Positions 1-56,671 of a stretch of DNA of 64,000 nt are shown here, in pieces. Both the position numbers and the translations under genes were made by a program. The first letter of the stretch is position 1. Each line of letters begins with the position of its first letter. The notes below the pieces were generated by a model that was not told the origin of the DNA, searched no databases, and saw only the letters and a program-made list of their open reading frames with translations. Source of the stretch: Kiritimatiellia bacterium (GTDB lineage Bacteria; Verrucomicrobiota; Kiritimatiellia; RFP12; UBA1067); NCBI GenBank assembly GCA_017652705.1, contig JAGCAM010000085.1, positions 585-64,584 on the forward strand, written 5' to 3'.

Positions 1-1433
1 GCGATCTCGCCCAGCCGGGCGTCGGGCAGACCGATGACCGCGACATCCTTCACCGCCGCGTTCGTGCGCAGAAAATCTTCGATCTGCACCGGATAGATGT
101 TTTCTCCGCCCGTGATGATCACGTCCTTCGCGCGATCGACGAGATAGATGAAACCGTCTCGTTCTTCGGCCATGTCGCCGGTCAGCAGCCACCCCGGTTC
201 CTTTTTGATTTCCGCAGTCGCCTTGGGGTTGCGGTAGTATTCTTTCATCACGCCCGGGCCTTTGAGCGCGAGTTCGCCGACTTGACCGGGCTTGACCGGC
301 GTAACCCCGTCGGAGCCGACGATCTTCGTCTCCCAGCCGTAGCCGGCGACGCCGATCGCCCCGACGTGATCGATGTTCTCCACCCCGAGGTGCACCGCCC
401 CCGGGCCGGTCGATTCGCTCAAGCCGTAGTTGGTGTCGTAATCGTGATGCGGAAAAACCTTCTTCCAGCGCTTCACCAGCGAAGGCGGCACCGGCTGCGC
501 CCCGATGTGCATAAGCCGCCACTGGCCAAGTTCGTAGTCGGAGAGCTTTATGTCGCCGCGGTCGATCGCGTCGAGAATGTCCTGCGCCCACGGCACCAGC
601 AGCCACACGATCGTGCATCGTTCCTCCGACACGGTGCGGATTATCCACTCCGGCTTGACGCCCTTCAGCAGCACAGCCCTGCCGCCGACGAGAAACGAGC
701 CGAACCAGTGCATCTTCGCGCCCGTGTGGTAAAGCGGCGGGATGCAGAGGAACGTGTCGTCCTTCGTCTGGCCGTGGTGCGCCTGCTCCACCAGACAGCT
801 GTGCAGCAGACAGCGGTGCTGCAGCACGATCGCTTTCGGAAAACCAGTCGTGCCGCTCGAAAAGTATATCGCCGCCTCGTCCTCCGGCAGCATCACCGTT
901 TCGGGGGACTTCGATATGCAGTACCCGACGAGATTGTGGTAGGATTCGGCGAACACCGGGCAGTCCTCGCCGACGTAGAGCCTCGCCTTGACGTTCGAGA
1001 TGCAGTCCGCGATCTGCTCCACGCGGCCGATGAACTCGGGTCCGAACACGAGCGCCGCGGCGTCGGAAAGACCGAGACAGTACTTGATTTCGTCCGACGT
1101 GTATCTGAAGTTGAGCGGCACCGCCATGCACCCGGCCTTGAGCACGCCGAAGTAAATCGGCAGCCACTCGAGACAGTTCATGAGAAGAATCGCGATTTTA
1201 TCGCCCTTTCTGAAGCCGCGGCTCAGCAGAAAGTTGGCGAAACGGTTCGCTTTCTCGTCGAATTCCCGCCAGGTGAGCTCCGAGCGGAAAGCCCTCGCCG
1301 GCGCCGACTCCACCAATTCCGCCTCGCGCCAGGTTTTCTGGCGGCCTCCGTCGGGGGTGTCGATCTCGACCAGCGCCACGTCTCCGCCCCATTCGCGGGC
1401 GTTGCGCTCAAGTATTTCGGTTATGTTGTTCAT
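1..1433 (-). CDS. AMP-dependent synthetase/ligase (acyl-CoA synthetase family); C-terminal end cut by window edge
   Basis: Absent from the ORF track because it is open at the window edge. My minus-strand translation from ATG (cat at 1431-1433) reads MNNITEILERNA...YFSSGTTGFPKAIV...GDMAEERDGFIYLVDRAKDVIITGGENIYP, giving the AMP-binding SSGTTGxPK box and the adenylate-forming core. Plus-strand ORF 282..1562 is its Arg-rich shadow. Confidence 0.85.
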   Translation of the reverse strand, partial: MNNITEILERNAREWGGDVALVEIDTPDGGRQKTWREAELVESAPARAFRSELTWREFDEKANRFANFLLSRGFRKGDKIAILLMNCLEWLPIYFGVLKAGCMAVPLNFRYTSDEIKYCLGLSDAAALVFGPEFIGRVEQIADCISNVKARLYVGEDCPVFAESYHNLVGYCISKSPETVMLPEDEAAIYFSSGTTGFPKAIVLQHRCLLHSCLVEQAHHGQTKDDTFLCIPPLYHTGAKMHWFGSFLVGGRAVLLKGVKPEWIIRTVSEERCTIVWLLVPWAQDILDAIDRGDIKLSDYELGQWRLMHIGAQPVPPSLVKRWKKVFPHHDYDTNYGLSESTGPGAVHLGVENIDHVGAIGVAGYGWETKIVGSDGVTPVKPGQVGELALKGPGVMKEYYRNPKATAEIKKEPGWLLTGDMAEERDGFIYLVDRAKDVIITGGENIYPVQIEDFLRTNAAVKDVAVIGLPDARLGEI

Positions 1434-13066: not shown

Positions 13067-14176
13067 CTACAGCCGCGACTTGAAATCATCGTAGCCGAAG
13101 CGTTTTAAGACCTTTACTGATCCCAGGCGAGTTCGGAGCGCGATGGACGGCAGCGGCATGCCGTTGAATGTGTTGTTCTTCACCATCGTGTAGATCGCCA
13201 TGTCCTCGAAGACGAGTTCGTCCCCGACCTTGAGCTGACGCGCGAACGAATAGTCTCCGATTACGTCCCCCGCGAGGCAGGTCGGTCCACCAAGCCGGTA
13301 GGTGTACTTCTTCTCGCCCGGCTGGCCCGATCCCCTGAGCGGCGGACGGTACGGCATTTCGATAACATCCGGCATGTGGCACTCCGCCGATGCATCGAGA
13401 ATCGCAATCGGCATTCCGTAGTCGACGATCTCCCGCACCGTCGTCACCAGCGTCCCCGCATTTAGCGCAATCGCCTCGCCGGGCTCGAGATACACCTCAA
13501 GGTTGGGATGACGCCGACGGAAGTCCTTTAGCGTCTTCACCAGCAATTTGACGTCGTATCCCTTGCGGGTGATGTGGTGTCCGCCCCCGAAGTTCACCCA
13601 CTTCATCTGCGGCAGGAACTCGCCGAACTTCGCCTCGAACACTTCGAGCGTCCGCGCCAGCACGTCCGCACCCTGCTCGCACATGGTGTGGAAATGCAAT
13701 CCCTCCACGCCGCGCAAGTCGTCCGCCTTGAGGAATTCCCGCGGCACTCCCAACCGGGAGCCAGGCGCACACGGATTGTAGATGTCGTGCTCGATCTCGC
13801 TGTAGCCGGGATTCACCCGCAGTCCGAGGCTCGCCTTGCCACGGCAGACGCGCCGCGCAAGCGCGAGCTGCGGCAGCGAATTGAGGACGATGTGATCCGA
13901 ATACTTGAGGACTTCCCGCAGTTCCGACACCGTAAAGGCCGGATTGAACACATGGTTCTCCCGACCTGGCATCTCCTCCGCCGCGAGCCGCGCCTCGTAG
14001 ACGCCGCTGGCGGTGGTGCCGTCAAGGTGCTTGGCGACAAGCGGATAGGTCGCGTAGCACGAAAACGCCTTCTGCGCAAGGAGAATCTTCACCCCCGCGC
14101 GGCTGCGCACCGAGGCGAGCAGCTCGAGGTTGCGCCCGAGCAACGCCTCGTCGATCACGTAGTACGGGGTCTTCAC
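13067..14176 (-). CDS. nspC: carboxynorspermidine/carboxyspermidine decarboxylase
   Basis: VKTPYYVIDEALL...HFHTMCEQ...NFGGGHHIT...GGPTCLAGDVIGDY has typical CANSDC (alanine racemase-fold PLP decarboxylase) features. GTG start 14176 overlaps the upstream stop (GTGA). Confidence 0.9.
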   Translation of the reverse strand: MKTPYYVIDEALLGRNLELLASVRSRAGVKILLAQKAFSCYATYPLVAKHLDGTTASGVYEARLAAEEMPGRENHVFNPAFTVSELREVLKYSDHIVLNSLPQLALARRVCRGKASLGLRVNPGYSEIEHDIYNPCAPGSRLGVPREFLKADDLRGVEGLHFHTMCEQGADVLARTLEVFEAKFGEFLPQMKWVNFGGGHHITRKGYDVKLLVKTLKDFRRRHPNLEVYLEPGEAIALNAGTLVTTVREIVDYGMPIAILDASAECHMPDVIEMPYRPPLRGSGQPGEKKYTYRLGGPTCLAGDVIGDYSFARQLKVGDELVFEDMAIYTMVKNNTFNGMPLPSIALRTRLGSVKVLKRFGYDDFKSRL

Positions 14177-15516
14177 GGAACCTTCACCGGATCGAAGTTT
14201 TCCTTCCAGGGGAGTCCGCGGCGCTTCAGTTCCGCCATGAACGGATCGGGATCGAACTCCTCGCAGGTGTGGACGCCCTTCGCCGTCCACTTTCCGTCGA
14301 GGAACATCTTCGCGCCAATCATCGCGGGGACGCCGGTCGTGTAGCTGATCGCCTGCGAGCCGACTTCGCGGTAGCACTTCTGGTGGTCGCATACGTTGTA
14401 CACGTAGTAGTCCACCGTCTTTCCGTCCTTCTTGCCGTGGAAGATGCAGCCTATGTTCGTCTTGCCCTTGGTGCGCGGACCGAGCGACGCGGGATCGGGC
14501 AGCAGCGTCTTGAGGAATTCGATGGGGACGATCTTGTGCCCCTGGAAGTCGACGGGGTCGATACGCGTGAGCCCCACGTTCTCAAGGCACTTGAGGTGCG
14601 TGAGATAGCTCTGACCAAAGGTCATGAAGAAGCGGATGCGCTTGATGCCCTTCAAGTTGCAGCCGAGCGACTCGAGCTCCTCGTGATGGAGCAGGTACAT
14701 GTCCTTCTTGCCGACCTTGTCGAACACGTATTCGCGCTTGATGGCCATCGGGTCCGTCTCCACCCACCAGCCCTTGTCGAACGCTTTTTTGTATTTGACC
14801 TTCACGCCGTGGGCGTCCTTCGACTTCTTCCCCTTCTCGCTCGTCCAATACGAGCCCTTCGCGGCGACTTCGCGGAGGTTGATCTCGGGGTTGAAGTTCG
14901 TGGCGAAGGGATAGCCGTGGTCCCCGCCGTTACAGTCGAGGATGTCCAGCGTCTCAATGGTGTCGAAGTAGTGCTTCTGCGCGTAGGCGGAGAACACCTG
15001 GGTGACGCCGGGGTCGAATCCGCAGCCGAGGATCGCGGTGAGCCCTGCCTGCTCGAACTTCTTGCGGTACGCCCACTGCCACGAATACTCGAAGTGCGCC
15101 TCGTCCGGCGGCTCGTAATTCGCGGTGTCGAGGTAGCTTACGCCGGCCTCGAGGCAGGCGTCCATGATCGCGAGGTCCTGATAGGGCAGCGCGATGTTCA
15201 TCACCAGGTCAGGCTTGAACTTGCGGATGAGCGCCACGAGGCGCGGCGTATCCATCGCGTCGATCTGGGCGGTCGAAACACGGGTTGAGATGTTGCGGGG
15301 TTGAGATGTTGAGATACGTGTCGAGGCGTTGAGATGCTGAGAAATCGAGTTGGGGGAGTACCACGGGCGGGACATGATGTCCTTGCGGATGGCCTTGCAC
15401 TTTGATTCAGTGCGCGAGGCGATCAGCAGGTGCCCGAAGGTCTCCGGGTCCTGGCACATCTTCGCGGCGGCGACGCCGGCGACACCGCCGGCACCGATGA
15501 GGAGCACTCTGCTCAT
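14173..15516 (-). CDS. carboxynorspermidine/carboxyspermidine dehydrogenase (saccharopine dehydrogenase family), carrying a repeat-derived in-frame insert
   Basis: MSRVLLIGAGGVAGV Rossmann start, then YLDTANYEPPDEAHFEYSWQWAYRKKF, GCGFDPGVT and ISYTTGVPA. The SPNSISQHLNASTRISTSQPRNISTRVST segment is encoded by the CTCAAC repeat. Confidence 0.9.
   Translation of the reverse strand: MSRVLLIGAGGVAGVAAAKMCQDPETFGHLLIASRTESKCKAIRKDIMSRPWYSPNSISQHLNASTRISTSQPRNISTRVSTAQIDAMDTPRLVALIRKFKPDLVMNIALPYQDLAIMDACLEAGVSYLDTANYEPPDEAHFEYSWQWAYRKKFEQAGLTAILGCGFDPGVTQVFSAYAQKHYFDTIETLDILDCNGGDHGYPFATNFNPEINLREVAAKGSYWTSEKGKKSKDAHGVKVKYKKAFDKGWWVETDPMAIKREYVFDKVGKKDMYLLHHEELESLGCNLKGIKRIRFFMTFGQSYLTHLKCLENVGLTRIDPVDFQGHKIVPIEFLKTLLPDPASLGPRTKGKTNIGCIFHGKKDGKTVDYYVYNVCDHQKCYREVGSQAISYTTGVPAMIGAKMFLDGKWTAKGVHTCEEFDPDPFMAELKRRGLPWKENFDPVKVP
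15281..15357. repeat. GTTGAGATG short-repeat cluster (sense CTCAAC arm) inside the dehydrogenase CDS
   Basis: The plus strand reads GGGTTGAGATGTTGCGGGGTTGAGATGTTGAGATACGTGTCGAGGCGTTGAGATGCTGAGAAATCGAGTTGGGGG. Confidence 0.85.
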
Positions 15517-15539
15517 GGGCGTGAATCCTTTCTTTTGTT

Positions 15540-15588
15540 GTTGACAACGACCTGAATTCCGTACTCCACCCGGAGCAGTTCAAAGGCG
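15540..15588 (-). promoter_or_regulatory. conserved 5' leader element, copy A (upstream of the dehydrogenase gene)
   Basis: Sense CGCCTTTGAACTGCTCCGGGTGGAGTACGGAATTCAGGTCGTTGTCAAC begins a few nt after the TATAAT box. It is near-identical to copy B at 19916-19966. Confidence 0.55.
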
Positions 15589-15593
15589 AGTGT

Positions 15594-15602
15594 ATTATAT
15601 CA
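15594..15602 (-). promoter_or_regulatory. extended -10 box TGATATAAT for the dehydrogenase-nspC unit
   Basis: The minus strand reads AATTTGATATAATACAC about 80 nt upstream of ATG 15516. Confidence 0.5.
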
Positions 15603-15694
15603 AATTCTCGTCCCGCTCATCTGGGAACTCTGACGTTTCGCGTAATCTCGAAGGCGGGATTCTGCTGCCGTGTCATGCCTCGGCGACGGCGTTA

Positions 15695-16246
15695 TCATCG
15701 CGCCAGCTTCACTTTCAATATCCAGCCGCCGCCGCCGGGCTTGCGGCCGGCCGGGTCGGGATGCGTCCAGTGGACAACACCGCCGCGCTCGTTGTCGATG
15801 TACTCGCCTCTGAAGATCACCTCGTCGCCCTGCTTCACGTCTTTGAGCCGCTCCCACTTGTCGATATTGTTGGCGATGAGAACCGTGCGTCCGGCCGGAT
15901 CGGCGACCAGGAGACGCTGGTGGCGCGGCGGATTGATGTCGTCCGGCAGCACCTTCTTGACAGTTCCCCGGCCCTCGATCCAGCTGCGGTTCTTAAAATC
16001 AGCGAAGAAGCACGGATCGGGAATCGTTGCCGTAATCTTCCTCACCCCGCGAACCACGGTGTTCGTTCTCGTTACCGGCGGCGTTCCCCGCACCGGTCTC
16101 CGGCCCGACAACCTCGCCGACGCGTCTTCACGTCCGCGCGCTTCCGTCGGATAGCCGTTGCGAAAGCTCCAATGATGCGTCACCGCGCCAATGCCCATCA
16201 CCAGCGCGAAAGCCGCCCACGCAAAAATCCAGGTCTTCGTTTTCAT
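15695..16246 (-). CDS. DUF3465-family membrane-anchored protein
   Basis: An N-terminal TM helix, then GTVKKVLPDD...HQRLLV...VLIANNID...GDEVIFRGEYIDNERGGVVHWTH. This matches the DUF3465 pattern as I recall it. Confidence 0.7.
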   Translation of the reverse strand: MKTKTWIFAWAAFALVMGIGAVTHHWSFRNGYPTEARGREDASARLSGRRPVRGTPPVTRTNTVVRGVRKITATIPDPCFFADFKNRSWIEGRGTVKKVLPDDINPPRHQRLLVADPAGRTVLIANNIDKWERLKDVKQGDEVIFRGEYIDNERGGVVHWTHPDPAGRKPGGGGWILKVKLAR

Positions 16247-16253
16247 GCCGTCT

Positions 16254-16262
16254 ATTATAGCA
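16254..16262 (-). promoter_or_regulatory. extended -10 box TGCTATAAT only 7 nt before the DUF3465 ATG (possible leaderless transcript)
   Basis: The minus strand reads TGAATTGACACGAACTGTGCTATAATAGACGGCATG within the 30-nt speB/DUF3465 gap. Confidence 0.35.
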
Positions 16263-16276
16263 CAGTTCGTGTCAAT

Positions 16277-17236
16277 TCATGCGGGCACCGATTTATCGCA
16301 CTGATCATTCTGAGGAAACCAACGTCCCGCCGCACCGGACAGGGCAAGGAGGCACTCGCGGAGGAACTTGCAGGCGAGGGCCGTGGAACGTCCCGATGGA
16401 TCGAGCGAGGGATTGAGTTCCACATTGTCGAGCGCGACCACATGGAAACGCGTGAGAATGTCCGTGATCGCGCAACGCAGTTCGTCGTAGTGCAGTCCGC
16501 CCGCCTCCTGGGTGCCCGTGCCCGGGAAGTCTGCGGGATCGAGCACGTCGAGGTCGATGGTGAGATAGACGGGGGTTGAGACGCTGAGCCGCTGAGGGGT
16601 TGAGACATCGCAACAACTCAACTTCTCAGCACTGTTCCAACTCAACTTCTCAACACCTTTACAAGTAAACTTCTCGGCAATCACATGCCCCGCCTTCATG
16701 AAGGCGAACTCTTCGCGGGTGCCGGAGCGGATTCCGAACTGGAAGATACGGCCGTCGCCGAGGAGGTCATAGCATCGCCGCATGACGGTGGCGTGCGAAA
16801 GCGTCTCGCCGAGGTATTCCTCTCGGAGGTCGGCGTGGGCGTCGAAGTGGATGATGCGCAGGCCGGGGAACCGCTTGAACGCGGCGCGGACCGCCCCGAG
16901 GGTGACGAGGTGCTCGCCGCCGAGCATGAACGGAATCTTGCCGTCGTCCAGTATCTCGCCTGCACGCGTCTCAATGGCCTCGAGCTGTCTCGCCGGAGAG
17001 CCGAACGGAAACTCCAAGTCTCCTGAATCGTAGAACGGGAAGTCTTCGAGGTCACGGTCTTGATACGGCGAGTACGTCTCGATGCCGTAGCTCTCGGCAC
17101 GAATCGCCGCAGGGCCGAACCGCGTTCCAGGACGGTAAGACGTCGTGGCATCCGCCCCCGCGCCGAACAGCACGACCTTCGCCCGATCATAGTCGTACGT
17201 CGCCCCGATAAAAACATTCCTGTTCGCTTTTTCCAT
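16277..17236 (-). CDS. speB: agmatinase-family ureohydrolase (agmatinase or aminopropylagmatine ureohydrolase) with palindromic repeat insert
   Basis: GGEHLVT, HFDAHADL and LTIDLDVLDPADFPGTGTQEAGG are arginase-fold Mn-binding motifs. ATG 17236 has AGGAG 5 nt upstream; an alternative GTG is at 17242. Confidence 0.9.
   Translation of the reverse strand: MEKANRNVFIGATYDYDRAKVVLFGAGADATTSYRPGTRFGPAAIRAESYGIETYSPYQDRDLEDFPFYDSGDLEFPFGSPARQLEAIETRAGEILDDGKIPFMLGGEHLVTLGAVRAAFKRFPGLRIIHFDAHADLREEYLGETLSHATVMRRCYDLLGDGRIFQFGIRSGTREEFAFMKAGHVIAEKFTCKGVEKLSWNSAEKLSCCDVSTPQRLSVSTPVYLTIDLDVLDPADFPGTGTQEAGGLHYDELRCAITDILTRFHVVALDNVELNPSLDPSGRSTALACKFLRECLLALSGAAGRWFPQNDQCDKSVPA
16570..16677. repeat. imperfect palindromic GTTGAG/CTCAAC element inserted in frame in speB
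   Basis: The plus strand reads GGGGGTTGAGACGCTGAGCCGCTGAGGGGTTGAGAC-atcgcaaca-ACTCAACTTCTCAGCACTGTTCCAACTCAACTTCTCAACACC. It encodes about 35 extra residues (AEKFTCKGVEKLSWNSAEKLSCCDVSTPQRLSVSTP) just before the conserved VYLTIDLDVLDP. Confidence 0.8.
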
Positions 17237-17239
17237 TTT

Positions 17240-17271
17240 CACTCCTCAGCCACTCAACGCCTCAACCTCTC
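17240..17271. repeat. CTCAAC repeat arm in the speE-speB spacer (sense GTTGAG; supplies the speB SD)
   Basis: Sense strand reads TGA-gatgacGAGAGGTTGAGGCGTTGAGTGGCTGAGGAGTGaaaATG. Confidence 0.8.
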
Positions 17272-17277
17272 GTCATC

Positions 17278-18141
17278 TCACTTGGTCTCCTCTTCCCTGA
17301 GGATGTCAAGCACGTAGTTGGGCAGGGCGAAGGCGCCGCGGTGGAGGGCGGTGTTGTAGTAGCGCGTGGTAATGCGCAGCTTGTTCCAACGCGCCTCGTC
17401 AAGGTTGCCGATGGGATGGTACTTCTTTGAGGCGAAGCCGAAGAGCCAGTGCCCCGAAGGATAGCTGGGGATGTGACACTGGTAGACGGTGGAGACGGGG
17501 AACTCCACCGCGATATGGCGGTGGGCATCGCGCACGGAACGCTGGTGCGCCGCGTAGAACGGCGACTCGTGCTGGTTGATGAGGATGCCGTCGTCGCGCA
17601 GCGCCTTGTAGCAGGTGCCGTAGAACTCGCGGGTGAAGAAGCCTTCGGCGGGTCCGTAGGGATCGGACGAGTCGACGATGATGAGGTCGTACTCGGCTTT
17701 CTTGCCGCGCACGTATCTGAGGCCCTCCTCGAACCACACCTTCACCCGCCTGTCCTTGAGCTTCGAGGACGTGAACGGCAGAAACTTCTTCGCCAGCAGC
17801 ACAACGTGCTTGTCCACCTCCACAAGGTCGATGGACTCTATGGCGCGGTACTTGACGAGTTCGCGCACCGTGCCGCCGTCGCCGCCGCCGATCACCAGCA
17901 CGTTCTTGACCCGCGGGTGCACGGCCATCGGCACGTGGGTGATCATCTCGTGGTAGATGAATTCGTCCTTTTCGGTGATCATCAGTCCGCCATCCAGAAC
18001 CAGCACGCGGCCGTAGGCGGGCGTGTCGAAGATGTCAATCTGCTGTACAGGGCTTTTTCTGGAAACGAGCTGCTCGCTCACCTTCATTGAGAAGCGCACG
18101 TCGCGCGTATGTTCGTCGGTGTACCAGAGTTCGGTTTGCAT
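17278..18141 (-). CDS. speE: spermidine synthase / aminopropyltransferase
   Basis: VLVIGGGDGGTVREL, DLIIVDSSDPYGPAEGFFT and YPSGHW motifs; 287 aa. Confidence 0.92.
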   Translation of the reverse strand: MQTELWYTDEHTRDVRFSMKVSEQLVSRKSPVQQIDIFDTPAYGRVLVLDGGLMITEKDEFIYHEMITHVPMAVHPRVKNVLVIGGGDGGTVRELVKYRAIESIDLVEVDKHVVLLAKKFLPFTSSKLKDRRVKVWFEEGLRYVRGKKAEYDLIIVDSSDPYGPAEGFFTREFYGTCYKALRDDGILINQHESPFYAAHQRSVRDAHRHIAVEFPVSTVYQCHIPSYPSGHWLFGFASKKYHPIGNLDEARWNKLRITTRYYNTALHRGAFALPNYVLDILREEETK

Positions 18142-18189
18142 GGGAGGTTGAGTGGTTGAGTTGTTGAGCGGTTGAGGGGTTGAGGGGGG
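18142..18189. repeat. five tandem GTTGAG units (sense CTCAAC arm) between the 4-helix-bundle ORF and speE
   Basis: The plus strand reads GGGAGGTTGAGTGGTTGAGTTGTTGAGCGGTTGAGGGGTTGAGGGGGG. It exactly fills the gap between the speE ATG and the TAA of the small ORF. Confidence 0.9.
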
Positions 18190-18390
18190 TTACACTTTTT
18201 TCTGGCGGAACGGTTCGCCGGAAAGTGATTGCATGAGGCGAAAGAGCTTAACCTGCACACGTTCAAGATCGCCATATATAGCACCAAAGTCCGACGAAAA
18301 CAAGCGAGCAGCGGTCAAGGCGTAGATCTTTTTAACTATCGCCCGTCCGTCCTTCCATATCTCAATATCTTCAAACTTTCTGAATGCCAT
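18190..18390 (-). CDS. four-helix-bundle protein (23S rRNA intervening-sequence protein / Avd-like family), shortened 66-aa copy
   Basis: MAFRKFEDIEIWKDGRAIVKKIYALTA resembles the family N-terminal helix (F.DL.VW..A..L...IY). Family members as I recall are about 115-125 aa, so this copy looks internally deleted. GC is about 46% by my count against GC-rich neighbours. SD GAGGAGA is upstream. Confidence 0.5.
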   Translation of the reverse strand: MAFRKFEDIEIWKDGRAIVKKIYALTAARLFSSDFGAIYGDLERVQVKLFRLMQSLSGEPFRQKKV

Positions 18391-18413
18391 TTCTCTCCTC
18401 AACTTCTCAACGC
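18391..18413. repeat. CTCAAC repeat arm (sense GTTGAG) between the speA stop and the 4-helix-bundle ORF
   Basis: Sense strand reads TAG-GCGTTGAGAAGTTGAGGAGAGAA-ATG. It is an inverted repeat of 18142-18189. Confidence 0.85.
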
Positions 18414-19895
18414 CTACGCAAGCACATTGATGTATTCGAGCGACATGTCCTCGGTGCCGGTCATGAAGCAACCCTTCTCCTTCGCGAAGAGAATGTGCGC
18501 CAGCACGTCCGGGGTAATCCGTTCGCCGGGGGCGACGATCGGGATGCCGGGCGGGTAGCTCATCACGAACTCGCCGGCGATCTGTCCCGTGGACTCCCGC
18601 ATCGCCACGCGGCGCTTTTTCGCGTAGAACGCCTCCTGCGGGGGCATGGCGATGACGGGGTCAATGTACTCGTGGTCGAAGAGCCCGGCGGGGCTCTTCT
18701 CGCGCTGGCGCTTGATCTCCTCGAGGGCGGAGATAAGGCGCTCGACGTCCATCATCCGGTCGCCGTTGGAGATGATTGCGAGCAGGTTGCCGATGTCGCC
18801 GAACTCGATCTGGATGCCGTAGTCGTCGCGGAGGTAGTCGTAGACCTCGATGCCGGCGAGCCCGATGTCGCGGGTGTGGACGGAGAGCTTCGTGCGGTCG
18901 AAGGCGAAGACGGTGTCGCCGTTGACGAGCTCGGGGCCGAACGCGTGGTACCCGCCGAGCTCGTTGATTTCGTCGCGCGCGTAGTCCGCGAAGTCCATCG
19001 TCTGCTGGTACATCTGCTTCCCCCGGAAGAACAGATTGCGGCGCGCGATGTCCAGCGACGAAAGCAGCAGGTAGGAGGCGGAGGTCGACTGTGTGAGGGT
19101 GATGACCTGGCGGACGTAGTCCGGATTCACCGGGCGGCGCGTGAGCAGGACCGAGCTCTGCGTTAGCGAGCCGCCGGTCTTGTGGATGGACGCCGCGGAC
19201 ATGTCGCACCCGGCGGCCATCGCGGAGACCGGGAGCTCGCCGTGGAAATAGAAGTGGGTGCCGTGCGCCTCGTCCGCCAGCACCGTCATACCCGCCTCGT
19301 GGGCGATTTTGACAATCTCCACGAGGTTGGAGCAGATGCCGTAGTAGGTGGGGTTGTTGACCAGGACCGCCCTGGCGGACGGATGCTCGGCGACTGCCTT
19401 GCGGACGTCGGCGACGCTCATTCCGAGCGGGATGCCGAGCTTCCGGTTGATGCCGGGGTTGATGTACACCGGAACCGCCCCGCTGACGACCAGCGCGTTG
19501 ATGGCGCTGCGGTGGACGTTGCGCGGCATGATTATCTCGTCGCCGCTCTTGACGGTGGCCATGATCATCGCCTGCACCGCCGAGGTGGTGCCGTTGACCA
19601 TGAAGAACGCGTCGTCGGAACCGAACGCCTCCGCCGTCAGCTCCTGCGCCTCGCGGATGACGGACACCGGATGCCCGAGGTTGTCGAGGGGTTTCATGGA
19701 GTTTACGTCCATCGCCATGGCCCGTGCGCCGAGATACTCGGTAAGCTCGGGATTCCCCCGACCGCCCTTGTGGGCGGGGACGTCGAAATGCGCGAGGCGG
19801 TTGATGCGCTGCGCATCAAGAGCCTCCGCCAGCGGCACGCGCCGCTGGCGCGCCGATACCTCGTTTTCCGCTTTCGCGGATACAGAACGTGCCAT
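18414..19895 (-). CDS. speA: PLP-dependent arginine decarboxylase (Orn/Lys/Arg decarboxylase family, Bacillus SpeA-type)
   Basis: 493 aa; FMVNGTTSAVQAMI, ADEAHG and SIHKTGGSLTQSS (PLP lysine region). The operon context with speB favours arginine as substrate. Confidence 0.85.
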   Translation of the reverse strand: MARSVSAKAENEVSARQRRVPLAEALDAQRINRLAHFDVPAHKGGRGNPELTEYLGARAMAMDVNSMKPLDNLGHPVSVIREAQELTAEAFGSDDAFFMVNGTTSAVQAMIMATVKSGDEIIMPRNVHRSAINALVVSGAVPVYINPGINRKLGIPLGMSVADVRKAVAEHPSARAVLVNNPTYYGICSNLVEIVKIAHEAGMTVLADEAHGTHFYFHGELPVSAMAAGCDMSAASIHKTGGSLTQSSVLLTRRPVNPDYVRQVITLTQSTSASYLLLSSLDIARRNLFFRGKQMYQQTMDFADYARDEINELGGYHAFGPELVNGDTVFAFDRTKLSVHTRDIGLAGIEVYDYLRDDYGIQIEFGDIGNLLAIISNGDRMMDVERLISALEEIKRQREKSPAGLFDHEYIDPVIAMPPQEAFYAKKRRVAMRESTGQIAGEFVMSYPPGIPIVAPGERITPDVLAHILFAKEKGCFMTGTEDMSLEYINVLA

Positions 19896-20139: not shown

Positions 20140-20271
20140 ACAAAGCGTACGGCAGCCCGTGGCGGCCGCCGCGTTCCGCGAATACCATTTTTGCCGCGCT
20201 GTGTGGGAATCTGCGCGGCGGAGGTGATCCACAAGTGCACGGGGACGTTCCTATGCAACTATAGCGGCAAA

Positions 20272-20326
20272 GGGGTACCCCAAAATCGAAAAGTGGGTAC
20301 CCCAAAATCGAAAAGTGGGTACCCCC
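20272..20326. repeat. 2.5 copies of a 22-bp direct repeat, each carrying the palindrome GGGTACCC
   Basis: GGGGTACCCCAAAATCGAAAAGT / GGGTACCCCAAAATCGAAAAGT / GGGTACCCCC. Palindrome centres are 22 bp apart. Confidence 0.9.
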
Positions 20327-56017: not shown

Positions 56018-56671
56018 ATGGAAATATTCAATTACCGTTTCAAGGATGAAGCGCTCCTGCGCGAGGCGCTCACCACGCCTGAGAGGCGGATGGACGAACC
56101 CGGCGCCGCCGACAACCAGCGGCTCGAGTTTCTCGGCGACGCGGTGCTCGGCCTGCTCAGCGCGGAACTGCTGTTCGGTGAGTTTCCTTCGGAGCGCGAA
56201 GGTTCGCTGACCGTCCGCCGCGCGCACATTGTTTCGTCGGCGGCGCTCTGCGAAGCGGCGGACCGGGCCGGTCTCGGAGGACTGCTGATCCGGAACCGCG
56301 GCGCGAAAAAACTGCCTAAGGATTCAAAGATTCTGGCCGACGCGGTGGAGGCGGTGCTCGGGGCTGCCTACGTGGACGGCGGTCTCGAAGCGGCGCGTAC
56401 GGTGTTTGAAGCGACCGGCGTCGCCGCCAACGCGCTTGGCGGGGAGTGGAGCGGCAATCCGAAGGGTGAGCTGCAGGTGCGCACTCAGGCGATGAACCCG
56501 CCGCGGCTGCCGGCCTATGAAATCGTCAGTATCGCCGGTGTGGCGCACAAGCCGGTCTTCACGGTGAGAGTCGAGGTCGAAGGGGCGGGCTCCGCCGTTG
56601 CTTCCGCCGGCAGTCGCCACGGCGCAGAATCCGCCGCCGCCGCCGAACTGCTGAAAAAGGCCTTTCGGTAG
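56018..56671 (+). CDS. rnc: ribonuclease III
   Basis: NQRLEFLGDAVLG signature, DAVEAVLGA, and a C-terminal dsRBD. Confidence 0.93.
   Translation: MEIFNYRFKDEALLREALTTPERRMDEPGAADNQRLEFLGDAVLGLLSAELLFGEFPSEREGSLTVRRAHIVSSAALCEAADRAGLGGLLIRNRGAKKLPKDSKILADAVEAVLGAAYVDGGLEAARTVFEATGVAANALGGEWSGNPKGELQVRTQAMNPPRLPAYEIVSIAGVAHKPVFTVRVEVEGAGSAVASAGSRHGAESAAAAELLKKAFR

Follow-up and report, generated by a model that had tools for sequence, protein, structure and literature searches.

A 272-bp spacer in a Kiritimatiellia polyamine operon as a probable relic of an intervening-sequence-like PF05635 cassette with complementary octamer arms

Why should two adjacent genes of a polyamine operon be separated by 272 bp that consist of a small open reading frame (ORF) framed by inverted arms? 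The question is raised by a 64,000-nucleotide stretch of a metagenome scaffold from a Kiritimatiellia bacterium (GenBank assembly GCA_017652705.1, contig JAGCAM010000085.1, positions 585 to 64,584), here called the window, in which such a spacer lies on the minus strand between speA and speE (18142-18413). We consider it probable, at roughly 0.7, that the spacer is a decayed, lineage-specific cassette of the intervening sequence (IVS) type, carrying what is left of a PF05635/TIGR02436 four-helix-bundle gene between complementary arms built from 8-nt units, which are GTTGAGNN in the 5' arm and CTCAACNN in the 3' arm. The same type of cassette, with intact ORFs, is present in operons of other bacteria, where it is co-directional with its neighbors and fills the gap from the stop codon of one gene to the start codon of the next.

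A first-pass annotation, made from the letters of the sequence, had divided the spacer into a G arm, an ORF and a C arm, and all of its coordinates were exact. Read on the minus strand, the TAG stop codon (18414-18416) of the upstream host gene, a PF01276 Orn/Lys/Arg decarboxylase gene designated speA (18414..19895; Pfam/NCBIfam), is abutted by the 5' arm (18391..18413). This arm, GCGTTGAGAAGTTGAGGAGAGAA as a whole, resolves into GC GTTGAGAA GTTGAGGA GAGAA and is down to two octamer (GTTGAG) units. It contains a GAGGAG resembling a Shine-Dalgarno (SD) sequence (18400-18395) ahead of the 66-codon ORF (18190..18390), which runs from an ATG at 18390 to a TAA at 18190. The 3' arm (18142..18189) is made up of CCCCC, five CTCAAC units of the CTCAACNN type and CTCCC; in the sense direction it reads CCCCC CTCAACCC CTCAACCG CTCAACAA CTCAACCA CTCAACCT CCC and abuts the ATG of speE at 18141. 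Its units follow an exact 8-nt period (Tandem Repeats Finder: period 8, 4.9 copies). The downstream host gene speE (17278..18141) encodes a spermidine synthase (NF002010, 370 bits; TIGR00417, 302 bits). The GC content of the ORF, previously estimated at about 46%, was computed as 46.3%, compared with 63.1% in the window as a whole and 61-65% in the genes on either side. Neither a promoter-like nor a terminator-like site was found in the spacer, and a search with Rfam 15 at gathering and permissive thresholds detected no family in the spacer; neither ribosomal RNA (rRNA) nor any other Rfam family was detected in the window.

The orthologous operon was read in six related Kiritimatiellae contigs with speE 87-94% identical to that of the window; homologues of the window speE in general were 85-94% identical, and the named ones are labelled Kiritimatiellae. 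The closest relative, L212 (speE 94% identical at the amino acid and 88% at the nucleotide level), has a speA-speE spacer of 10 nt, TAG-GAGACAGCCG-ATG. Its junction reads ...CTTGCGTAG GAGACAGCCG ATG..., and both flanks align with the window. In the other five relatives the two genes lie 3, 11, 25 or 37 nt apart or overlap in an ATAATG. The 66-aa ORF is absent from all six operons, and the entire 272 bp are missing from the closest relatives. Because all six relatives examined have empty sites, for which the first-pass annotation had suggested looking, the spacer is, on the comparison of these contigs, a lineage-specific inserted cassette. Several relatives, including L126 and L214, carry an SD sequence (GGAGG) in the short spacer, whereas the bases in front of the speE ATG of the window (18142-18150) read CAACCTCCC and resemble an anti-SD sequence; the insertion has therefore displaced the SD of speE. 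The 37-nt speA-speE spacer of another relative, L122, reads TTCAACCC TCTAATCC TGTAAATT and resembles a degenerate C-type arm. It is possibly the scar of an older cassette.

The first-pass annotation had also assigned the ORF product to the 4-helix-bundle family. This assignment stands for about 40 N-terminal residues and fails for the remainder. Comparison by hhalign with 12 family members placed ORF residues 5-36 on family columns 7-38 (probability 84%, E 7e-6), and a more divergent set of five members gave E 7e-4. A custom hidden Markov model (HMM) of 120 family proteins, run unfiltered on all window ORFs of 25 aa or more, had the 66-aa ORF as its sole match among 1173 (E 0.0018), the next-best ORF reaching E 0.86. 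When the 120 family proteins were used as tblastn queries, 118 aligned pieces fell within this part of the ORF frame, and the best of them matched family residues 7-39 with ORF residues 5-38. In a multiple alignment, ORF residues ~4-44 were collinear with the family from helix 1 across the F-x-x-E-x-F-G loop up to the conserved Arg in helix 2. Past residue ~44 no significant similarity to the family was seen and the SNIAEG motif was absent, while full-length members have ~105-130 aa with SNIAEG. Homology of the N-terminal ~40 residues to PF05635/TIGR02436 is thus real but weak and partial, and the ORF is the remnant of a four-helix-bundle gene from which half of the length or more has gone, and with it no fewer than two of the four helices. 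A product without these helices cannot form a four-helix bundle, and we regard this copy as a relic. An internal deletion joining helix 1 to helix 4 is weakly suggested (tblastn E 0.02 or worse, blastp E 1.3); a collinear model with the N-terminal half alone fits at least as well.

It is very improbable that the ORF encodes a functional small protein or a leader peptide that regulates the polyamine operon. Its site between polyamine genes and the SD-like sequence before its ATG would suit such a role, but it is absent from all six related operons examined, its sequence is unique among 5.8 billion proteins, and the low GC content together with the family match points to a truncated foreign gene.

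The repeats of the arms are far more frequent than chance would give. With up to 1 mismatch allowed, the two-unit pattern GTTGAGNNGTTGAG matched 17 times against 0.28 times expected from shuffles. All 17 matches lie within 15284-18411 and none elsewhere in the 64 kb. The first-pass annotation had proposed to search the genome for other copies with the same arms, and further copies of these arms are present in the window itself. It had also predicted that the arms pair in two helices separated by a small internal loop, and this was reproduced. In the predicted ensemble the 3' arm is the pairing partner of both GUUGAG units at a probability of about 1.0, and ~15 arm-to-arm base pairs are expected. 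The duplex energy is -23.3 kcal/mol, a value reached by 5 of 500 shuffled 3' arms. A further prediction, that the stem occludes the SD of the small ORF, is borne out in part, the pairing probability over this site being 0.45-0.68.

Units of the GTTGAG/CTCAAC type occur at five sites within 3.2 kb of the operon and nowhere else in the 64 kb. The five arrays have common units, yet they are not copies of one sequence. Apart from the two arms, a solo G-type array (17245..17266, minus strand) occupies the spacer between speE and the downstream speB/agmatinase gene (16277-17242, minus strand). It precedes the SD of speB and reads GTTGAGGC GTTGAGTG GCTGAG, after which come GAGTGAAA and the ATG of speB; in the closest relatives speE and speB overlap at this place. 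Other 8-nt arrays are found at the speE-speB junction of relatives, namely a GGGAATAG/GAAGAGGG-type array in L122 (5856-5949) and an 8-nt periodic array, GGGTGTTT, in L129 (5859-5925).

Two further arrays are located within coding sequences. An ORF-less hairpin of six G-type and then four C-type units, read in frame, lies in speB (16570..16662, minus strand). It replaces a shorter agmatinase loop of the relatives with a net gain of 15 aa, and its fold has an energy of -38.2 kcal/mol (z = -3.75). Repeats of GTTGAGNN give TGA in all three frames every three units, and in this hairpin exactly the two units in the TGA-giving phase are mutated, to GGAACAGT and GTTGCGAT. A short CTCAAC-containing insertion is present at the same speB loop in L129. 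The carboxynorspermidine dehydrogenase gene (14173-15516, minus strand), the last gene listed in the polyamine operon, contains a C-type array (15284..15341, minus strand) that reads CTCAGCAT CTCAACGC ... CTCAACCC. This array is in frame and corresponds to a loop insertion of ~18-24 aa (SPNSISQHLNASTRISTSQPRNISTRVS) that is missing in the relatives.

Do such arms accompany PF05635 genes elsewhere? When one genome per species was scanned for CTCAACNN units standing three in a row, at least 120 loci were returned, and the matches listed belong to Bacteroidota, Verrucomicrobiota, Planctomycetota, Desulfobacterota, Acidobacteriota and further phyla. Many of the listed loci are hairpins of a GTTGAG array, a loop and a CTCAAC array, the order always being G and then C. 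Others are solo arrays, some of them immediately before a start codon. Among the matches listed, a Pfam-confirmed PF05635 ORF lies beside the arrays at four loci. Three of these, L054 (Bacteroidales), L008 (Desulfatiglandales) and L115 (Desulfobacteraceae), have the architecture of the window with intact ORFs, and the fourth, L015 (Acidobacteriota), combines a PF05635 ORF with downstream CTCAAC units and a single GTTGAG unit upstream. Intact armed ORFs from other loci scored 93-118 bits on the family HMM. A scan of 15 cassette or hairpin loci against Rfam returned no family.

Some of these loci have features of their own. In L008 (about 1110-1400, minus strand) one PF05635 ORF is split by an inserted small ORF (YIYVLQS...NFYMGYT...) that looks like a candidate GIY-YIG nuclease and would then be an element nested in an element. 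Haliscomenobacter and other Saprospiraceae have hairpin-only elements (L057 744-825, 3269-3406 and 4073-4195; L083; L084; L005) in which a conserved inner stem-loop, GCTACCGCGAGCGA...GACAAGGAC...TCGCTCGCGGTAGC, separates the GTTGAG from the CTCAAC arrays; these elements come in several copies per locus and match no Rfam family. The Verrucomicrobiota loci L037 (656-693) and L039 (329-466 and 937-1004) carry solo (GTTGAGRR)n arrays of 5-14 units that fill the stop-to-start gap and may be multi-SD or three-frame-stop leaders independent of any cassette.

Since arm-based ascertainment had to be removed, 80 metagenome loci were gathered by protein similarity alone, and the 76 with enough flanking sequence were quantified. 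The flanks of the 80 loci almost everywhere comprise an array of the GTTNANNN type upstream and an array of complementary units downstream, the latter often starting with the TAA of the ORF itself and ending at the ATG of the next gene. The units vary between elements (GTTTAA, GTTGAT, GTTGAA, GTTATG, GTGTAA and others), and a few elements have a 7- or 10-nt period. Autocorrelation was best at lag 8 in 58 of 76 upstream and 44 of 76 downstream flanks, control windows from the same loci being flat. The consensus 5' and 3' units are complementary at 5.94 of 8 positions, compared with 4.68 of 8 with permuted partners. The arm-to-arm alignment score exceeded the permuted 95th percentile in 24 of the 76 loci, and the duplex energy was better than that of pairing with the arm of another locus (p = 4e-7). 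Neighboring genes are co-directional in 63 of 66 cases upstream and 51 of 60 downstream, at median gaps of 69 nt and 46 nt, respectively, that hold little beyond the arms. A complete hairpin is found on both sides of the ORF in about 8% of the loci.

A second subfamily, from Desulfobacterota (L215, L216, L226 and L227), is flanked by GTTAAG or GTTGAG units on the upstream side and by CTCAAC units on the downstream side. Loci with an identical protein differ in unit number (L215 and L216, 2 vs 3 octamers; L226 and L227, roughly 5 vs 20), which indicates that the arrays are hypervariable on very short time scales. Judged by these comparisons, complementary arrays of 8-nt units are a cross-phylum hallmark of PF05635 cassettes. 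This had been missed in the first-pass annotation: the arms are arrays of 8-nt units that accompany such cassettes across phyla and are also found in two coding sequences of the operon. The PF05635 subfamily was also sought in viral contigs; it was not found there, and a phage origin was rejected on this basis.

Several results weigh against reading the spacer as such a cassette. The HMM searches of the 66-aa product against TIGR02436/PF05635 that had been proposed at the outset came out empty, with nothing in Pfam at E up to 1 or in NCBIfam up to 10. A sequence search of the PDB gave no match, and in the word search among the 5.8 billion proteins the ORF matched itself only, with no other copy. 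The family signal is confined to about 40 residues. The stem of the window copy, 6+7 bp around a 2x2 internal loop, is 13-15 bp long, and the fold of the whole 296-nt region is no better than that of shuffles (z = -0.36). No target-site duplication is visible at the junctions by comparison with L212, and no mobilizing enzyme was identifiable for the cassette. The 80-locus sample represents one protein subfamily found by two peptide patterns. Finally, selection for pairing at the RNA level predicts that G.U-type mismatches between the arms outnumber those of the A.C type, and 57 cassettes yielded 90 G.U-type vs 96 A.C-type mismatches, a neutral result (p = 0.71).

Given this neutral spectrum, arm complementarity could equally be kept at the DNA level, for example by templated inverted-repeat correction, and the reading as a DNA-level mobile element stays alive. 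The spacer would then belong to a palindromic element with hairpin-only and ORF-carrying forms, resembling transposable elements of the miniature inverted-repeat type (MITEs), whose arms serve transposition or template-switch copying and for which RNA pairing and RNase III are irrelevant. Besides the symmetric mismatches, which give no sign of RNA-specific selection, the presence/absence polymorphism among close relatives speaks for this view, as do the hairpin-only elements that the same units form in many genomes, with several to a locus (L057, L083). The crowding of the same units at five sites in 3.2 kb of the operon and nowhere else in the 64 kb also agrees with it, and the in-frame colonization of coding loops is as in Rickettsia palindromic elements. 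Yet target-site duplications are missing both here and at the hairpin-only elements inspected, no transposase is associated, and the co-orientation with host transcription is strong. Moreover, a single sequence-specific transposase is hard to reconcile with arm units that vary from element to element. We therefore regard this alternative as unlikely, if by no means negligible. A MITE or DDE-transposon derivative with a target-site duplication and multiple near-identical copies was rejected: no duplication was seen at the sites inspected, and the five arrays of the window are not copies of one sequence.

The hexamers GTTGAG and CTCAAC also loosely fit the attC consensus, with its degenerate core GTTRRRY and inverse core RYYYAAC, and the element is a small promoterless ORF, as an integron-type gene cassette would be. 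However, the arms are tandem arrays rather than a single R''-L''...L'-R' site, the inverse-core-like units after the ORF lack a closing GTTRRRY, and the cassettes are scattered singly in housekeeping operons instead of being arrayed beside an integrase. We give this explanation almost no credence, and the attC reading is effectively refuted by the anatomy of the element.

Could the octamer arrays instead be a general feature of mRNA leaders and spacers, serving as initiation or insulation pads, with the ORF simply lying between two of them and its likeness to PF05635 incidental or secondary? The unit itself would be apt, in that (GTTGAGRR)n carries an SD-like GAGGAG and three-frame TGA, and solo arrays stand directly upstream of start codons in L037 and L039 and before speB. 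The other 8-nt arrays at the speE-speB junction of L122 and L129 fit as well, most of the 120 CTCAAC-array loci listed have no PF05635 ORF nearby, and a parallel exists in the TAACTGA heptamer arrays before start codons (PMC4679880). Such a feature would account for solo arrays, but not for paired arms around PF05635 ORFs. Loci picked by the PF05635 protein alone bear arrays on both sides that are mutually complementary, no window ORF other than the relic matches the family, and the whole 272 bp are absent from the closest relatives. We find this alternative rather improbable and prefer the reading of the spacer as a decayed IVS-type PF05635 cassette.

How might such a cassette behave in its host operon? 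Apparently lacking a promoter of its own, it would be transcribed along with the operon, and its arms would pair in the transcript, with the ORF looped out as it is in ORF-bearing 23S rRNA IVSs, the terminal stems of which are cut by RNase III. These IVSs are known from Coxiella burnetii, Leptospira, Xanthomonas and Brucella and carry an S23p (PF05635) ORF. A candidate processing enzyme is encoded outside the element: the RNase III gene named in the first-pass annotation (56018..56671, plus strand) does specify Ribonuclease_3 and dsrm domains. By analogy, cleavage of the arm stem by RNase III is plausible. RNase III substrates typically measure roughly 20 bp, and the stem of the window copy is well below this length. 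Because the stem is short and the region is not unusually stable, cleavage of this particular relic is uncertain; the uncoupling of speA from speE-speB by stem cleavage that had been suggested is hypothetical. The present effects of the relic are likely to be limited to the RNA level, where it would contribute an interrupted stem of 13-15 bp between speA and speE and put a pyrimidine-rich 3' arm in place of the SD region of speE. The arrays would be unstable and may have spread locally, giving rise to the solo array before speB and to the insertions that are read in frame within speB and within the carboxynorspermidine dehydrogenase gene.

The element in the window is, in our reading, a PF05635 cassette of the IVS type that resides in an mRNA operon, and the wider cross-phylum pattern is the more interesting lead. 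Tentatively, and at somewhat less than even odds, PF05635 genes inside and outside rRNA would form one coherent class of hairpin cassettes, selfish and spread across phyla. Its members would be marked by complementary, fast-evolving arrays of 7-8-nt units, with ORF-less hairpins and solo arrays as products of decay or spread. Both the class and the link that it would make between operons and rRNA appear to be undescribed. In a stronger version, each four-helix-bundle protein may recognize the arm units of its own element.

The origin of ORF-bearing rRNA IVSs and the role of the S23p/four-helix-bundle ORF have been an open question since the early 1990s, and thousands of 'four helix bundle protein' genes have been annotated without context. 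Armed operon cassettes, empty sites, variation in array length and ORF-less derivatives recast the PF05635 family as a cassette-type element. Operon cassettes further offer clonable substrates for studying RNase III processing of polycistronic mRNAs, binding of the protein to the arms and array instability. In genome annotation, octamer arrays flag such insertions and explain odd low-complexity loops in otherwise conserved enzymes.

Two neighboring features of the operon may be mentioned. A DUF3465 gene (15695-16246, minus strand) separates speB from the carboxynorspermidine dehydrogenase gene; none of the relatives examined has it at this position, and it is therefore the second insertion in the operon that is specific to this lineage. 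About 370-430 nt upstream of the speA start, and ahead of the only promoter-like site as well, lies a tandem repeat of 22 nt, AAAGTGGGTACCCCAAAATCGA (20269-20325; 2.6 copies, 97% match), which may be an operator or a further repeat element.

How does the cassette compare with known systems? The accessory protein Avd of diversity-generating retroelements (DGRs) has a homologous four-helix-bundle fold. Intact armed ORFs scored 45 and 27 bits on the Avd model NF033474, whose cut-off is 80, and the intact ORFs from Desulfobacterota are TIGR02436 members that fall under the DGR-Avd cut-off. With these sub-threshold scores, polyamine neighbors, and neither a reverse transcriptase nor a template/variable repeat nearby, a DGR/Avd reading was dismissed.

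The TAACTGA arrays of Beggiatoaceae, Cyanobacteria and Bacteroidetes and the cyanobacterial short tandemly repeated repetitive (STRR) heptamers resemble the octamer arrays in having 7-8-nt units near start codons and a distribution across phyla. TAACTGA arrays lie just upstream of start codons and give stops in all three frames (PMC4679880); here, likewise, one orientation provides three-frame stops and only the other can be read in frame. In their descriptions, however, TAACTGA and STRR arrays are direct repeats that have no partner arm and enclose no ORF, whereas the arrays found here form complementary pairs or hairpins. Rickettsia palindromic elements and the repetitive extragenic palindromes (REP) and bacterial interspersed mosaic elements (BIME) are likewise hairpin repeats that are tolerated in protein loops, as in speB and the carboxynorspermidine dehydrogenase gene, and between the genes of operons. 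The present arrays differ from them in having no sequence relationship, arms of tandem octamers, no RAYT-type transposase and no GTAG head.

Stand-alone TIGR02436/PF05635 genes of Bacteroidota, Desulfobacterota, the Planctomycetes-Verrucomicrobia-Chlamydiae group and others belong to the same family and have been annotated simply as genes; published gene tables show such genes inside operons. In Flavobacterium columnare, for example, a four helix bundle protein gene lies between gmk and nadD; both strains have ~35 nt between it and gmk, and the gap towards nadD is ~35 nt in one strain and 88 nt in the other (PMC5524665). We found no account in the literature of complementary octamer arrays flanking PF05635 genes, of empty sites of such cassettes or of ORF-less derivatives, although coverage of subscription journals was thin and an earlier description is possible.

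The closest parallel is the 23S rRNA IVS, and the first-pass annotation was right to draw it. The IVS of C. burnetii has a 28-bp terminal stem with an S23p (PF05635) ORF in its loop and three to four tandem GACAGAT heptamers, variable in copy number between strains, directly upstream of the start codon; RNase III cuts within the stem, and the ORF is in reductive evolution (PMC4990558). The window element shares with such IVSs a small, decay-prone PF05635 ORF that is predicted to be looped out by complementary ends, short repeats before its start codon and the lack of a promoter of its own. It differs in that it lies in a protein-coding operon and not in helix 9, 25 or 45, its arm units are octamers, its arms abut the stop and start codons of the neighboring genes, and its stem comprises 13-15 instead of 28 bp. 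Furthermore, its excision would cut an mRNA and not fragment an rRNA. Membership of the IVS class proper thus fails, because the element is not in rRNA. The architecture of the Coxiella IVS is nevertheless the same as that of the window element, and hence 'IVS-like cassette' is a sound description of its kind.

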